A DNA stretch of 64,000 bases. Source: a virus. The stretch lies in IMG/VR virus record IMGVR_UViG_3300026521_000466, positions 32,001-96,000 of that record; one strand, 5' to 3'. Position 1 is the stretch's first letter. Each line of letters starts with the position of its first letter. The notes beneath the pieces are model-generated. The model saw nothing but the letters and a program-made list of their open reading frames with translations. It did not search any database and was not told the origin of the DNA. Made by a program: the position numbers and the translations under genes. Below, piece by piece: positions 31,362-48,438 of the stretch.

Positions 31362-32180
31362 ATGTTAAAACTACATATCGATGCCTATACTGATATGAAT
31401 CTTGAAGATTCCATGTTTATCGACATAAAACGACTCTCAAAAATGAATAACCATATATTCCAATCTTTATCTGCTAAGTTATATAAATTGTTCAATTTCA
31501 AAGAACATTTGGATAACCTGATAAAAGATGATATGCTCATCGGACTTATGACTGCGGCCAAGAATGAAAAGCTGTTTATTGCTAAGTATGACGAAATAAA
31601 AGATGAAAGTATCCCTGTCCCTATGGGATTCAACGGTAACTTAATTGGAATTACCGGAGTAATTGATAAATACTTCAGAGATTATCTCACTATGTATGAA
31701 GAGAGAATGACTACTTTCAATCAGGAACTTTCTGAATTTATCAACAGCAAAGATGCAAGAACAAAATTGGTATTCAGCTATGATAATACTGATCTAAAGA
31801 AACATTTAATTAAGATGGATAAAGAGATACATGACCAGCTGACAAAATATAAAAGTCCAGTGGCCACTGTAGGTGATCTTTTTGTAAGTAAAAAAGGGTT
31901 TGGAGAAGTAGTAAAAAACCTAACACCATCTATGAGGTATATTAACAGTAAACGTATGAAAGAGTATGTTGGTATGGTACGTGCATTGAATGTAAAGTTG
32001 AAAGCATTGCAAGATATGGTAGAGGTGGAGAAGGACACTGTAAGTAAGAAAGCTCTGGTGCATATGATAGAAGAGATAGAGCTGGCAGCTAACATGGCTA
32101 CTCTACTAGGCAAATATGCTTTGGCTGCTTATGAGACTGTCAATATTATGAAGAGTGTGAATACAATGATAACAAAATAG
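31362..32180 (+). CDS. Probable internal head protein (phiKZ gp162/163-like)
   Basis: N-terminal MNLE site, VPMGFNG motif, helical. Confidence 0.5.
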   Translation: MLKLHIDAYTDMNLEDSMFIDIKRLSKMNNHIFQSLSAKLYKLFNFKEHLDNLIKDDMLIGLMTAAKNEKLFIAKYDEIKDESIPVPMGFNGNLIGITGVIDKYFRDYLTMYEERMTTFNQELSEFINSKDARTKLVFSYDNTDLKKHLIKMDKEIHDQLTKYKSPVATVGDLFVSKKGFGEVVKNLTPSMRYINSKRMKEYVGMVRALNVKLKALQDMVEVEKDTVSKKALVHMIEEIELAANMATLLGKYALAAYETVNIMKSVNTMITK

Positions 32181-34096: not shown

Positions 34097-34119
34097 CGTA
34101 GAGGATTATTCCTCTACGT
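34096..34119. terminator. Inverted repeat at convergent junction
   Basis: acgtagagga/tcctctacgt. Confidence 0.6.
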
Positions 34120-35185
34120 GCAGTATTCTTAATCTGTTGTTGTCAACGACATATGTTTTGTCATTGACTTTTAGATAGTTTATTCCGCCCGCCTCTTTGC
34201 TTATATCGTGTAGGTATGATGTGGATGGGATGTCTACCCAGTCGAGAGTGTCAAATGACGTAGTCTCCTCTACCATATACTCGATATTGGATAGGAGCAG
34301 TTTCTTCTCCAATAGCACAGAGAGCTTATCACCTGCTTTATATCCTTTATCCTCGAACATCTCCTTGAAAAGAACCTCTATCTTGTTCACCGCTTCTTTA
34401 TCGGTTTCTTCCAACTCCATATTTTTCAAGGATTGGAAATCCGTAATGAAATTTGTAAAGTTGGTAAAAGTGATATTTACCAAATAAGAATTTGCCAAAT
34501 GGTATAAGAACTTGTTGAACTCATCAGGCAGCTCTTTTGGAGCTATGTTTGATTTGTTCAACAAGGCGTTTATTACCGTGGGCGCGATATCCTCTTTCAG
34601 AATATACTTTTCTTCTGCTTGGAAGAAGACCAACTTCTCCATCTCCCCGCCTGCTAGTTTGACAGACCATGGATGTATAACCTTATTGAGGTTGATGCTT
34701 TCCGGCACGCTCACCTCTTTGGCGAATTTGTATGGATGGTATATTTTATGTGCATCTTCCTGCACCGGTTCTTTCCCCGGCGTTTTTGACTGGACTGTCT
34801 CATTCTGTACATCGTCAAATAGACCGCTGCTGTTACAAATTGTCGATGGAGAAGTGAACATATCATCCCCTTCCAATCCTGTTTTTGATTCATCGAACAG
34901 AGAGTCGTTATCCCAGAGCCCGCCGCCGCTAGTATCCCAAAGACCGCCTCCTTGACCGCCCCATCCACTATCTGACGAACCCCAACTGCCCGATGAGTCC
35001 CATCCACTATCAGACCCATCCCATCCGCCTGAGCCTCCCCAGCTGCTTGAACGACTCTTTATTCTCTTTACCAGTTTTGGTTCTCTATAGAGTTTTTTCT
35101 CTCCAAACTCATTGGTGATACCTATTAAGTAAATACCGTCTCCCCTACGTGTGTAGAGTTTATTGCCTCTCCTGATTACTTTCAT
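34106..35185 (-). CDS. Early protein with a Gly/Ser/Trp low-complexity repeat region
   Basis: 359 aa; SSWGGSGGWDGSDSGWDSSGSWGSSDSGWGGQGGGLWDTSGGGLWD; AAAGGA RBS and promoter at 35239-35247. Confidence 0.85.
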   Translation of the reverse strand: MKVIRRGNKLYTRRGDGIYLIGITNEFGEKKLYREPKLVKRIKSRSSSWGGSGGWDGSDSGWDSSGSWGSSDSGWGGQGGGLWDTSGGGLWDNDSLFDESKTGLEGDDMFTSPSTICNSSGLFDDVQNETVQSKTPGKEPVQEDAHKIYHPYKFAKEVSVPESINLNKVIHPWSVKLAGGEMEKLVFFQAEEKYILKEDIAPTVINALLNKSNIAPKELPDEFNKFLYHLANSYLVNITFTNFTNFITDFQSLKNMELEETDKEAVNKIEVLFKEMFEDKGYKAGDKLSVLLEKKLLLSNIEYMVEETTSFDTLDWVDIPSTSYLHDISKEAGGINYLKVNDKTYVVDNNRLRILHVEE

Positions 35186-35238
35186 ATCTATCCTTTATTT
35201 TTTGTGTTAGTGGATTTAGCTACTATCCACTACATATA

Positions 35239-44437: not shown

Positions 44438-45928
44438 TTATGCATAGAGTGTATTCGGGTATGTAGATTCTGTTATTGTCTTAACTCTCTGCAAGAGATA
44501 CTTTTTATTTCTTCTTACATATTTAGCATGTTGCGGAACTACTGTGGATACTAATTGTGTAAATATTACCTGTACCTCATTTTCTCTCAATCTTCCTATC
44601 ATTTGGAACAGGGCAGATATACTATCCATATTAATAGTATTTAGCGTGTAGATAAGCCCTTTAATGTCAATAGCTGCACCCAATGATTGTGAGTGTGATA
44701 CTCTGATGTCAGGCTCTAAGGCATTCTCATATTTTGAACCGCCTATATATTTCCTTACATCTAAGTCTTTATAGTGTTTCTTCAAACTCTCTGTTAGAAA
44801 ATCTATCATATCAAGAGATGATGCATAAACCAAACACTTATGGCCATCCTCTCTCTTTGACATATAATGTTTATCAATATAGAAAACTACCATGCGGAAG
44901 AACTCTTTTCTCAATCTCTTATTTTGCAATATGAATTTTTCAAATCGCTTATGTGAGTAGCCGTATCCGTATGAGAAGTTCATGCGTTTAGCAGAATGGA
45001 TATGATAGTTTGCATTCTCTATGATAGTAAATCGTTTATATGCCTCCAGCGCTAATCTTGACTCTTTAGGAAACAGTTGTTTATGGAACTTTTCCAATGA
45101 ACTATCCTTCGTGATCAGGGTAGCGCTCAACGCAATCATTCTTTTTGGATCTAGCATCATAGTTGCTATGAATATGTTATTAAACGATTGATGTGTTTCA
45201 TCTGAAAGCATAATGCCTAGATTCTTTTTCTCCATAAACTCATCAGGCTGTAGTGCATATCCATCATTCACTATAGCGGAGTTTGACGTATTTTCAAAAT
45301 AGACCCTCATAGTATCAGCAGACGCGATAACTATTTTGTACTGTTTGCTGTCATCCATAAACTCCTTTAAGGAATCACTCCCCTGTATTACACATATCTC
45401 GTCCTTAGTTACTTTTAGATAGGTTTCGATATCCTCTATCCATTTATCTATATAGCGAGGAAGGATATATATTAGTACACCTTTGTTTATTTTTGATATA
45501 GCCTCTGCAAACATATATGTTTTACCATATCCTGTCTCAGCTTCAACTATGACTCTGTGATGTGATTTATCAGAAACCATACCGTCGATAAAGAACGGTT
45601 GCTCATCACGCGGTGTAAATGATACATTCATCTCAAACGGCACAGTGTCAGTATCAGTCTCTCTTACCGATACGGCGACATCCCGTTTACTAATACCATT
45701 ACTGAATATATGGTAAAAGAACTCTTTCATTAATGTATCGATTATTACATATTCATGTTTATAATTTATATAGTAGTAGTAGCGATCAGACTTTTCATAC
45801 TTGGTAATACCTTTAGATCTTACTGGTTTATAGGTATATGAATTTCTGAGAAATCCTTTTACTACCCTATCCTCTTTGTCATCTGAGGGCAGTACCCTGA
45901 TTGTTTGGTTGTAGCGTATAACTTTCAT
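44438..45928 (-). CDS. SF2 DExH helicase (phiKZ gp75-like)
   Basis: AETGYGKT, DETH, LSAT, QMIGRLR. Confidence 0.9.
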   Translation of the reverse strand: MKVIRYNQTIRVLPSDDKEDRVVKGFLRNSYTYKPVRSKGITKYEKSDRYYYYINYKHEYVIIDTLMKEFFYHIFSNGISKRDVAVSVRETDTDTVPFEMNVSFTPRDEQPFFIDGMVSDKSHHRVIVEAETGYGKTYMFAEAISKINKGVLIYILPRYIDKWIEDIETYLKVTKDEICVIQGSDSLKEFMDDSKQYKIVIASADTMRVYFENTSNSAIVNDGYALQPDEFMEKKNLGIMLSDETHQSFNNIFIATMMLDPKRMIALSATLITKDSSLEKFHKQLFPKESRLALEAYKRFTIIENANYHIHSAKRMNFSYGYGYSHKRFEKFILQNKRLRKEFFRMVVFYIDKHYMSKREDGHKCLVYASSLDMIDFLTESLKKHYKDLDVRKYIGGSKYENALEPDIRVSHSQSLGAAIDIKGLIYTLNTINMDSISALFQMIGRLRENEVQVIFTQLVSTVVPQHAKYVRRNKKYLLQRVKTITESTYPNTLYA

Positions 45929-45981
45929 ACCCTCTCCTTATAGTAGTTAAGACATTATCATAGAAACATCTTATGTACAAT

Positions 45982-45990
45982 AATAATATA
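45982..45990 (-). promoter_or_regulatory. Early-type promoter motif TATATTATT for the helicase
   Basis: Intergenic copy. Confidence 0.65.
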
Positions 45991-46011
45991 TAAAGAAAAA
46001 AAACTAACCCA

Positions 46012-46044
46012 CGACATCATATGGTTTGCGGCCATATGATGTCG
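46012..46044 (-). terminator. Terminator closing the putative ncRNA
   Basis: 13-bp stem cgacatcatatgg/ccatatgatgtcg followed by a T-run on the minus strand. Confidence 0.75.
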
Positions 46045-46478
46045 GTTACATACTCACTCAACTGTGCACTGTCGAGGGCTGCTTGCATTTGTACCTTTTC
46101 TGGGTAAAGGCGTCTCCTTCAGGTCAACTCCGGAGATCTTACTTCATAAACTGGGGCTGGTCCCCATTAACGACAGGAGTTACCGATGACCCGGCTATCC
46201 CCACGGCGTTTTACGACATACACGCTCTGCCGGAGCAGGTCAGACTACCCCACTCACTTTTACGAGGCCACAATGCCTCTTCCATATAGCGATATAGTGC
46301 CATGTCCGTTTAGCACTTCAGTCATTTGTTTCGCGCAATGACATTACCCGCCGCGAGAACAGTGTTTGCAAGTCACTGTTCATTTATGGTCCTTTCGGAC
46401 GTGCTTTGGCCGTCGCCGCGATAATCATATCACCAAGTATAACTACCGCAAATACAGAATTTCCTATCCTATACTCAC
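46045..46478 (-). ncRNA. Putative large structured ncRNA (~430 nt), family unrecognised
   Basis: Bounded by a promoter motif and a terminator; GC far above genome background; no credible ORF; many nested helices with G-U pairs and a GAAA tetraloop on the minus strand. Confidence 0.7.
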
Positions 46479-46481
46479 AAT

Positions 46482-46490
46482 AATAATATA
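46482..46490 (-). promoter_or_regulatory. Early-type promoter motif TATATTATT for the putative ncRNA
   Basis: Intergenic copy with no protein gene downstream before the next terminator. Confidence 0.65.
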
Positions 46491-46529
46491 TAAACATAGT
46501 ATCTTGGAAATTGAAAAAAGATAATGTCA

Positions 46530-46553
46530 CCTAGGTGGAATTAACCACCTAGG
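46530..46553 (-). terminator. Stem-loop overlapping the nvRNAP beta' stop
   Basis: cctaggtgg/ccacctagg, T-run about 10 nt downstream. Confidence 0.6.
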
Positions 46554-48438
46554 AGAGTAACTCTTTTGGACAATGCACAACATCCAGCGGATGCGGAGTT
46601 TTATCTTCATAAAAGTTCATTATGTTAAGGAACGTATCTTTCTCACCCATGTTCAGTGCAGTGGTAAGACATCTATTCCTATATATCTGTTTGGTTTTAC
46701 CTATTTGTGCATTCACTCCTCTCACTAATCTGAAATCATAAGTAGCAGGATTCCTAGAGGTATATGCATAGGCCACCAGTGCAGCATGACTAATATGGAG
46801 ATAGAGTTTACTGTTATAGAGAGTGAATAGATTTAACAGTAGTTCACCTGCCGTTTCTATTGTTTCTCCATTGGGTGTCTTGGATGAATCCAGTATTGAC
46901 CTAATATTCTTATTCAGTATATTATAATCAAACACCTCTTCCGGTAGGAACATGATCCCATCTCTCTTATTCCATCCGCTCATATCTATCATATAGTTAC
47001 CATAGTCATCTATTGAGTAACCATGCTTCACTACATAGAGTAGGAACTTGTTTGTAAAGACAGCTGTCTTATTACCGCTTTTCACTTTCAAACTAATGGT
47101 CTCTACACCTTTGCGTGTGTTGTTCTCAATAACAAATCCACTTACATTTGATATCCGTGTAGGATCTGCAAGTTTCGCCATATCCACAGTTTTCAAATCT
47201 TTCAGTCCGTAGAACTGTTCAGAGCTGATTCTCAGTATTGGCTTCTTACCGATAGGCTCTTTAAAGTAGAGCGTATTGTCTTTCACCTTTATATACTTAG
47301 ATACATCACTTTCCAATACATAGACAGTGCCATCCGCAGATACAATATAGTGTTTTGTACTAAGCAGAGACTGCGTAGCTGGCTCATTGATCTTCGTACA
47401 TGCCCAGTGTCCCAGGTTGAACTTCATGAGTTTCTCATACCCCTGCACGCCATAACAATGGACACAGACAGTATCTTCTCGCTCATGCTTACAGGAGATT
47501 GCTGTTCGTATATAGATATACTTCCCAATGATCTCTTTTGTATCTTTGGTAATTAGTCTCCACTCATCCTCTTTGTTATACTTAAAGTATTGGCCTACCA
47601 CACCTTTGAATGTTCCGGGTGTTATATTGGATTTAGGTTCAATGTATATCAGAGTCCCTTCATCTGTACCACAATCATCATATGATAGATACTTTACCAC
47701 TTCAGATATTGTTTGTGTATGTTTGGCAAATGTCTCCGCATCCTGAATAGATGTCTTGGAGAAGACCAATGAAGTAACTGCACCGCGTGATTCCCCGGCA
47801 TACTCTACAATATCAGTAATACCTTCAATATATCCTGTAGTGACAGGCTTCTTGAATATTTGACTGTCAAAGTCTGATGGGTATCCCCTTAACACACATT
47901 GGTCAAACTGTCTGGCAGATACACTCTTGTTTATATAGGTATGAGCCACTTGGTTGTCTGCCAATTTTGCAGAGTTGAATATCACATCTCTTACTGCGGC
48001 ATAGACATCCTGCACACCCTCTTTGGTAGGGTGTTCTCTAAACTCTTTTAGCTTAGCCTGTACTTCATCCATATAGACTATCTCCAAGACATCATCAAAG
48101 TCGGAGAAGATAACGGATTCCATATTCTCATAGGCTAATTTATTATAGATAAAACTGATAGTGTCGAATACATGTTTTGACAACAACTCCAACTTGTTAA
48201 CCAGAGTATGGTCGTTGATAGATTTAAATAGTATATCCGTAACTATATGGTCAAACACTGATGTTACAGACGATTTTTCAAATCTGCCATCTACATAGTG
48301 TGATGTAATACTATACTCCTGTTTCAGCGGAAGACGGAAGACAGAGAGTACTTCCCATATCTTCATGTTTATCTCATAGACCAATGGTACTTGAGACTCC
48401 ACTACACCATTCGTAAACTTTACCTTTTCAATCTTCAT
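46549..48438 (-). CDS. Non-virion RNA polymerase beta' subunit C-terminal part (phiKZ gp74-like)
   Basis: DDCGT, R....C......VC.HCYG zinc site, EPATQSLLSTKH trigger-loop region. Confidence 0.9.
   Translation of the reverse strand: MKIEKVKFTNGVVESQVPLVYEINMKIWEVLSVFRLPLKQEYSITSHYVDGRFEKSSVTSVFDHIVTDILFKSINDHTLVNKLELLSKHVFDTISFIYNKLAYENMESVIFSDFDDVLEIVYMDEVQAKLKEFREHPTKEGVQDVYAAVRDVIFNSAKLADNQVAHTYINKSVSARQFDQCVLRGYPSDFDSQIFKKPVTTGYIEGITDIVEYAGESRGAVTSLVFSKTSIQDAETFAKHTQTISEVVKYLSYDDCGTDEGTLIYIEPKSNITPGTFKGVVGQYFKYNKEDEWRLITKDTKEIIGKYIYIRTAISCKHEREDTVCVHCYGVQGYEKLMKFNLGHWACTKINEPATQSLLSTKHYIVSADGTVYVLESDVSKYIKVKDNTLYFKEPIGKKPILRISSEQFYGLKDLKTVDMAKLADPTRISNVSGFVIENNTRKGVETISLKVKSGNKTAVFTNKFLLYVVKHGYSIDDYGNYMIDMSGWNKRDGIMFLPEEVFDYNILNKNIRSILDSSKTPNGETIETAGELLLNLFTLYNSKLYLHISHAALVAYAYTSRNPATYDFRLVRGVNAQIGKTKQIYRNRCLTTALNMGEKDTFLNIMNFYEDKTPHPLDVVHCPKELLS

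Follow-up and report, generated by a model that had tools for sequence, protein, structure and literature searches.

A candidate early non-coding RNA gene between the RNA polymerase beta'-like and helicase genes of an uncultured jumbo phage

What does a GC-rich stretch with no credible open reading frame (ORF) do between two core genes of an otherwise tightly packed phage genome? The window analysed here, a stretch of 64,000 nucleotides, runs from base 32001 to base 96000 of an IMG/VR virus record of 164,797 bp (estimated completeness 61%) that comes from an uncultured jumbo phage. Within it, the genes for an RNA polymerase beta'-like subunit and an SF2 helicase are separated by 620 nt (45929-46548) lacking any credible ORF. 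A preliminary description had called this the only long non-coding stretch of the window, and it is indeed the longest ORF-free gap there, the others measuring at most 335 nt; it is also the only non-coding GC island in the whole 165-kb record. The core of the gap has a GC content of 0.49-0.53, against 0.349 for the genome and 58% for the phage tRNA, so that the earlier figure of roughly 50% stands while the background quoted beside it, about 30%, was slightly low. In AT-rich genomes, long intergenic regions of high GC content are a well-established predictor of structured RNAs (PMC6429828). On balance, and with confidence somewhat above even, we favour the reading that the gap carries an independently transcribed, early and stable structured RNA gene which was acquired as a cassette. 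From its signals, an orphan and self-contained early non-coding RNA gene of approximately 465-480 nt on the minus strand is plausible. The features discussed below are collected in Table 1.

Table 1. Genes, predicted signals and predicted RNA domains at the locus (window coordinates).
Feature	Position	Strand	Remarks
RNA polymerase beta'-like subunit gene, 629 aa	46549-48438	minus	upstream neighbour; phrog_3015, E 7.7e-107
Hairpin across the beta' stop codon, with UCUUUUUUC behind it	46530-46553	minus	inverted repeat with 12-nt arms, 92% complementary
Early-type promoter copy 1, TTTATATATTATTATTGT	46477-46494	minus	perfect 18-nt direct repeat; core TATATATTAT at 46492-46483
Predicted transcription start, G	46476	minus	by analogy only with AR9, phiKZ and phiR1-37
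5'-terminal hairpin, 13 bp including 5 G-U	46448-46478	minus	ensemble probability 0.90; at or next to the predicted +1
Central domain (predicted)	46195-46362	minus	14-bp long-range helix 46362-46349/46208-46195, probability 0.97; three inner hairpins, 0.96-0.98
Long irregular hairpin domain with UGGGG/CCCCA tip (predicted)	46120-46193	minus	helix probabilities 0.80-0.97
Perfect 13-bp hairpin with 7-nt loop	46012-46044	minus	inverted repeat, 100% complementary; ensemble probability 1.00; presumed RNA 3' end/terminator
U8 run	45996-46003	minus	8 nt past the 13-bp stem; also the T-rich tract common before promoters of this class
Early-type promoter copy 2, same sequence as copy 1	45977-45994	minus	serves the helicase gene
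SF2 helicase gene, 496 aa	44438-45928	minus	downstream neighbour; Pfam ResIII and DEAD, phrog_16

A further GC island of the window (34628-35215) was considered as a sister RNA and discarded, being coding. It corresponds to a low-complexity segment rich in Gly, Ser and Trp (SSWGGSGGWDGSDSGWD...) within a 359-aa ORF at 34106-35185 on the minus strand.

The genes around the gap belong to a well-conserved block. Just upstream of the beta'-like gene stands a beta-like one, which has an Rpb2_6 domain, and the resulting order of beta, beta' and helicase is the same as in the described phiKZ-, AR9- and RSL2-like jumbo phages, even if identity between the flanking proteins and their counterparts there is only about 25%. 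Both neighbours appear intact: an alignment with four relatives shows that the beta'-like protein reaches the conserved HPLDV..PKE motif at its C-terminus, and the helicase gene is complete from its start, with an invariant Met1 in the alignment. As the two flanking genes are complete, the element is not an intron, and no Rfam intron family, group I or group II, matches it.

Comparison with relatives indicates how the gap arose. Helicase relatives with 36-43% identity were found on long metagenomic contigs, and in six loci (within L002-L008) from four related phages the beta' and helicase genes overlap or lie at most 14 nt apart; nor do the records of these relatives contain a GC-rich ORF-free gap. 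Because the flanking genes abut or overlap in the relatives' loci, the unit is evidently a lineage-specific insertion. It is present as a single copy in the genome, and no donor could be identified. Its absence from the closest relatives evidently makes the RNA dispensable for the core module of replication and transcription; the same comparison is an argument against obligatory cooperation with the helicase or the polymerase, a link that the preliminary description had raised as possible. The helicases of three of the related phages (P0002, P0004 and P0005, e.g. L004:5001-7334) are larger proteins of 777-786 aa, which align with the 496-aa helicase only from its residue ~137 onwards and have a different and much longer N-terminal part.

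How would such an insert be expressed? Two perfect copies of the 18-nt motif TTTATATATTATTATTGT occur at a spacing of exactly 500 nt, one before the putative RNA and one before the helicase gene, the latter copy being followed within ~50 nt by an AAGGAG Shine-Dalgarno sequence and the helicase ATG. A promoter for the RNA had been placed at 46482-46490, and the string found there, TATATTATT, is part of this motif; the separate helicase promoter that had also been proposed finds its counterpart in the second perfect copy, between the 3' hairpin and the helicase gene. Both copies belong to a class of 21 sites in the genome (17-mer, up to 3 mismatches) with the consensus TT(A/G)TATATTATTAT(A/T)GT, all of them on the minus strand and 19 intergenic; those of the window start (5' base, minus strand) at 1023, 1269, 5386, 33510, 43394, 45993 and 46493. 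The base after the 17-mer is a purine at every one of the 21 sites (13 G, 8 A), and AGGAG follows within 45 nt at 10 of them. Typically, a site is preceded by a hairpin and a TTTTTTCTT tract and followed by a gene; many of the sites have TTAGGTG in the leader, and upstream hairpins are enriched at the class (52%, against 23% of controls). The combination of hairpin, TTTTTTCTT and motif looks like a terminator-promoter cassette system, reminiscent of the promoter-early stem-loops (PeSLs) of T4.

The early consensus of the virion RNA polymerase (vRNAP) of jumbo phage AR9, mapped experimentally, is AAATATATATTAT-(6N)-G+1, with transcription starting 6 nt after the conserved element in AR9, phiKZ and phiR1-37 (PMC5312081); more generally, in phages related to phiKZ a vRNAP promoter is an extended AT-rich element, and transcription begins 6 nt downstream of it (PMC5312081, PMC7598289). 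At our locus, TATATATTAT-(6N)-G fits the AR9 consensus, as expected in sequence for an early vRNAP promoter of the phiKZ/AR9 type, and a related promoter core is present in two of the relatives' loci (L004 and L008). Judged by this agreement, the promoter is probably real and of the vRNAP early class. Since the motif fits the 6-nt rule, the +1 would be placed at G46476. The preliminary description had taken the RNA to be early-expressed, and the match to the AR9 early consensus agrees with that at the level of sequence.

The unit is bounded by hairpins on both sides. Upstream, the hairpin reported at the end of the beta' gene (46530-46553) exists and overlaps the beta' stop codon, and it is likely to be the 3'-end signal of the beta'-like gene. 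Downstream, the element had been said to end in a 13-bp terminator at 46012-46044. The hairpin itself is perfect, but it does not have the form of a canonical intrinsic terminator: 8 nt separate the stem from the U8 run, and for want of a U run directly at the stem a strict scan for intrinsic terminators did not call it. The layout of hairpin, TTTTTTCTT and promoter recurs across the genome. In addition, a perfect 9-nt inverted repeat, GACATTATC / GATAATGTC (46520-46528 and 45951-45959), encloses the cassette with both promoter copies; we estimate that ~0.7 such pairs would be expected by chance in the region, and the repeat may mean nothing.

Next to its signals, the folding of the element was compared with shuffled sequence, with the opposite strand and with the rest of the genome. 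The core on the minus strand has a z-score of -3.11 and none of 100 shuffles folded as well, whereas the plus strand gives +0.75. As a measure of folding energy against shuffles the first value is weak evidence when taken alone, since 3 of 25 random 434-nt minus-strand windows of the same genome reach -3.1 or lower (mean -1.1 +/- 1.4). The difference between strands, on the other hand, is more specific for RNA, because G-U pairs work on one strand only, and such pairs account for 25 of the 143 pairs of the minimum free energy (MFE) structure. Here the element stands apart: its delta-z of -3.86 and its delta-MFE of -39 kcal/mol both lie beyond all 29 control windows, in which delta-z was 0.17 +/- 1.38 with a minimum of -3.33. 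The preference for the minus strand noted in the preliminary description is thus borne out, and we take the strand-specific folding as moderate support for pairing at the level of a minus-strand RNA.

The particular structure proposed before fares less well. Every helix string quoted for it occurs at its coordinates, yet enforcing these helices together gives -141.1 kcal/mol, which equals the shuffle mean (-141.7 kcal/mol) and costs 22 kcal/mol relative to the MFE of -163.3 kcal/mol. Individually, GUCC-GAAA-GGAC, GAGGC/GCCUC, GGGG/CCCC and the 3' hairpin are retained with probabilities above 0.96, while the long-range helices and the three-hairpin junction fall to ~0. The suggestion that the RNA is probably pseudoknotted is not sustained either, all the quoted helices being nested. 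In the fold predicted instead (Table 1), the 5'-terminal hairpin has -9.3 kcal/mol, the strongest hairpin at the +1 of any of the 21 promoter sites, and is not followed by an ORF. The central domain and the long irregular hairpin domain beside it are thermodynamic predictions.

Could the gap encode a protein after all? Each minus-strand frame contains 7-11 stops of all three kinds, and a gene hidden by stop-codon reassignment was discarded, no single reassignment opening any of these frames. The short ORFs of the gap have no Pfam match. An 87-aa ORF on the plus strand reached a nominal E of 3e-9 in a search of 1.84 billion proteins; this match is an artefact, in which the same 45-aa stretch aligns to four near-identical repeats of one protein at 30-35 bits each, and for a single copy the E value is ~450.

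Neither does the element correspond to a known RNA. The preliminary description could not match it to tmRNA, RNase P, 6S, SRP or group I/II introns, and the searches made here agree: Rfam 15 cmscan of positions 45800-46700 with E values up to 10 gave no match inside the element, and at gathering thresholds the whole window gave 0 matches. The families covered include GOLLD, ROOL, OLE, raiA, HEARO, RNase P, tmRNA, 6S and SRP, as well as group I/II introns, small ribozymes and riboswitches. An ARAGORN scan for tRNA and tmRNA reported 0 genes in the window and likewise none in L001. At the level of motifs, a CsrA-type GGA sponge, a Shine-Dalgarno mimic and a complement of the TTAGGTG leader were each rejected for lack of enrichment; internal repeats and motifs (GGA, Shine-Dalgarno-like, palindromes) are at chance level, with one 8-nt palindrome. 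Internal direct repeats, including the end repeat GUGAGUAU, were likewise set aside, their number being about that expected by chance in 470 nt by our estimate.

Searches for homologues were equally negative. No homologue was found by blastn against 50,697 phage records plus plasmids, nor by BLAST of five related IMG/VR records or nhmmer on two complete relative records; scans of IMG/VR, JGI metagenome contigs and species genomes with words from the core returned chance matches only, and a covariance model of the central domain (R1) recovered nothing but the element itself. The element is thus a singleton in every collection searched, although near-identical records may have been excluded from these. 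In one of the chance matches, 23 nt of the RNA (46194-46172) are exactly identical to part of an FKBP-type isomerase coding sequence (L054:1788-1810) on a 3.3-kb contig of a Dehalococcoidales MAG; no similarity extends beyond them, and the identity was judged a coincidence.

Outside the window, the same genome contains another ORF-free stretch on the minus strand, of 1.14 kb (L009:1340-2476, genome 155340-156476). It comprises, in order, an early-type promoter at genome position 156452, a candidate RNA of ~530 nt, a tRNA-Met (L009 1830-1906) and a second candidate of ~340 nt. The former has a z-score of -2.75 (plus strand, -2.20), and the latter folds very well, at -5.37 (plus strand, -3.32). 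Apart from the tRNA, the stretch has no convincing Rfam match, only sub-threshold ones with E values of 0.015-0.59. Paralogy of the element with these two candidates was rejected, as they share no words with it, align at shuffle level by Smith-Waterman and give no covariance-model match.

Placing the element among known systems helps to define what it may be. Large ornate RNAs of bacteria and the phages that carry them, such as GOLLD, ROOL and OLE, have been resolved by cryo-EM (PMC12286853). Like them, the element is several hundred nucleotides long, GC-rich, predicted to form many helices and devoid of ORFs, in this case on a phage; moreover, such RNAs were found as long GC-rich intergenic regions. 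Unlike them, it has no match in sequence or structure at E values up to 10, is a singleton where they form widespread families, and its sequence gives no sign of homo-oligomerisation, the one 8-nt palindrome being at chance level. ROOL and GOLLD are roughly 500-800 nt in length, and the element is shorter. A stand-alone analogy is phi29 pRNA, a 174-nt RNA with a defined role in the packaging motor: the element too is a predicted structured early RNA with an early promoter of its own, as are other stand-alone phage RNAs, but it shows no similarity to pRNA and no link to packaging genes. Stand-alone phage RNAs can diverge too fast for word-based searches.

The ncRNA candidates of phiKZ, identified by ONT-cappable-seq (PMC10914365), also come from a jumbo phage with its own multisubunit RNA polymerases, are likewise defined by a phage promoter and a downstream hairpin, and also lie upstream of a gene on the same strand. 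They measure ~90-200 nt and arise by premature termination or processing in the 5' or 3' UTR of a gene (PMC10914365), whereas the element would have ~470 nt and has a further complete promoter behind it, which makes it a separate unit. The layout of the insertion recalls the PeSL cassettes of T4-type phages (PMC2839356, PMC4122927), in which modules of early promoter and stem-loop terminator flank a variable insert that is absent from relatives. Reading along the minus strand, we find the same succession of hairpin (46553-46530), promoter, insert, hairpin (46044-46012) and promoter, and identical flanking promoters are the expected product of cassette recombination or of mini-circle integration. 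The differences are that the promoter of the element is of the AT-rich vRNAP type (phiKZ/AR9-like) and not sigma-70-like, that the cargo is a putative non-coding RNA in place of a small ORF, and that the insertion lies inside a conserved core block where PeSLs occupy a hyperplastic region.

These observations have to be weighed against other explanations. The insert might be passenger DNA, that is, a decayed, GC-richer acquired gene or element trapped between promoter/hairpin cassettes and transcribed by promoter happenstance. Such an origin is compatible with an insertion that is specific to this lineage and missing from all relatives, has no counterpart in any collection searched, and shows a foreign-looking GC content and a z-score within the genomic tail; the shuffling of cassettes is also known to carry along accessory DNA whose function is unknown (PMC2839356). 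However, the stops in all frames and the lack of any real protein similarity leave no trace of a decayed ORF, the folding advantage is specific to the transcribed direction (beyond 29/29 controls), a perfect consensus promoter is combined with a perfect 13-bp hairpin and a 5' hairpin at the +1, and the genome is otherwise tightly packed, with other gaps of the window no longer than 335 nt; we therefore find this origin doubtful, while taking it seriously. The RNA could alternatively act in cis, as a long 5' UTR of the helicase gene whose hairpin would be a conditional terminator, attenuator- or riboswitch-like, yielding a 5'UTR-derived RNA. It does immediately precede the helicase gene, in the same orientation, the offset of the U run from the stem means that termination may be leaky, and phiKZ makes many terminator-bounded 5'UTR-derived RNAs, at 17 loci (PMC10914365). 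In the phiKZ-type arrangement, though, the sole promoter is shared with the downstream gene, and this is not what is found here: a second perfect promoter between hairpin and helicase gene removes any dependence on read-through. No riboswitch or leader family of Rfam matches at E values up to 10, inspection reveals no convincing anti-terminator alternative to the 13-bp stem, and the relatives express the helicase gene without any leader, all of which makes a cis-acting leader quite unlikely.

Two further readings would dispense with a functional RNA. One holds that the locus works as DNA, for instance to initiate replication, to serve recombination or packaging, or to bind proteins, its RNA product being irrelevant. 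An island of distinct composition that is bracketed by repeats, lies beside a helicase gene and is enclosed by the 9-nt perfect inverted repeat (46528-46520 / 45959-45951) could be read in this sense, but a folding advantage on one strand through G-U pairs would not be expected from the symmetry of DNA, there are no iterons and no AT-rich unwinding element, the internal repeats are at chance level, the cumulative GC skew has no turning point at the gap, and the region is absent from relatives; we regard a DNA-level role as very improbable. The other holds that the gap encodes one or more small proteins, from the 87-aa plus-strand ORF or from minus-strand ORFs of 23-30 aa. ORFs of 30-87 aa do exist, and the largest has its nominal E of 3e-9 against a repetitive protein; that match, however, dissolves into four near-identical repeats with a single-copy E of ~450, there is no Pfam match, and the ORF is antisense to all its neighbours, with a TTG start inside the terminator hairpin and no Shine-Dalgarno sequence. 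The mini-ORFs of the minus strand lack Shine-Dalgarno sequences as well, and longer chance ORFs are expected in GC-rich sequence, so that a coding function is barely credible.

Returning to the early structured RNA gene that we favour, the signals of the locus suggest the following course. The virion-type RNA polymerase would start at about G46476 from the canonical early promoter, and the transcript would fold from its first bases into the 5' hairpin and then a GC-rich multi-helix body, ending at the 13-bp hairpin (46044-46012) and the U8 run. Transcription of the helicase gene would restart at the second, identical promoter. As to its origin, the insertion may have come about by recombination between promoter/stem-loop cassettes, in a layout like that of T4-type phages. 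The product would be an early, trans-acting stable RNA capped by hairpins at its 5' and 3' ends, possibly a decoy or scaffold, for example for a host RNA-binding or RNA-degrading factor. We guess at a protein decoy or scaffold acting in trans, in preference to a ribozyme or a cis-regulator, on three grounds: the RNA has a predicted promoter and 3' end of its own, it has hairpins at both ends, and the neighbouring genes of relatives run without it. In a bolder version, which we think unlikely, the element would be the first member of a new class of large structured RNAs, made by the vRNAP of phiKZ/AR9-type phages during the first minutes after infection and spread by cassettes, which would target a host factor, for instance as an anti-defence or RNase decoy, or assemble into a particle by itself. 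Should that version be true, the two structured ORF-free stretches beside the tRNA would help to mark this phage as one with an unusual wealth of RNA-based functions.

What is known of giant phages that have their own RNA polymerases concerns mainly their proteins. To our knowledge, few of their non-coding RNAs have been mapped, and we know of no large one with a known function. The present value of the element is limited by its being a singleton from an uncultured phage without a known host; still, at ~470 nt and with a predicted +1 and 3' end, it is a compact substrate for structure probing and for searches for binding partners. If the RNA gene is real, it shows that a mobile promoter/terminator cassette can bring a complete RNA gene into the most conserved gene block of such a giant phage, which would express it at the very start of infection, the stage that decides host takeover and escape from defence.
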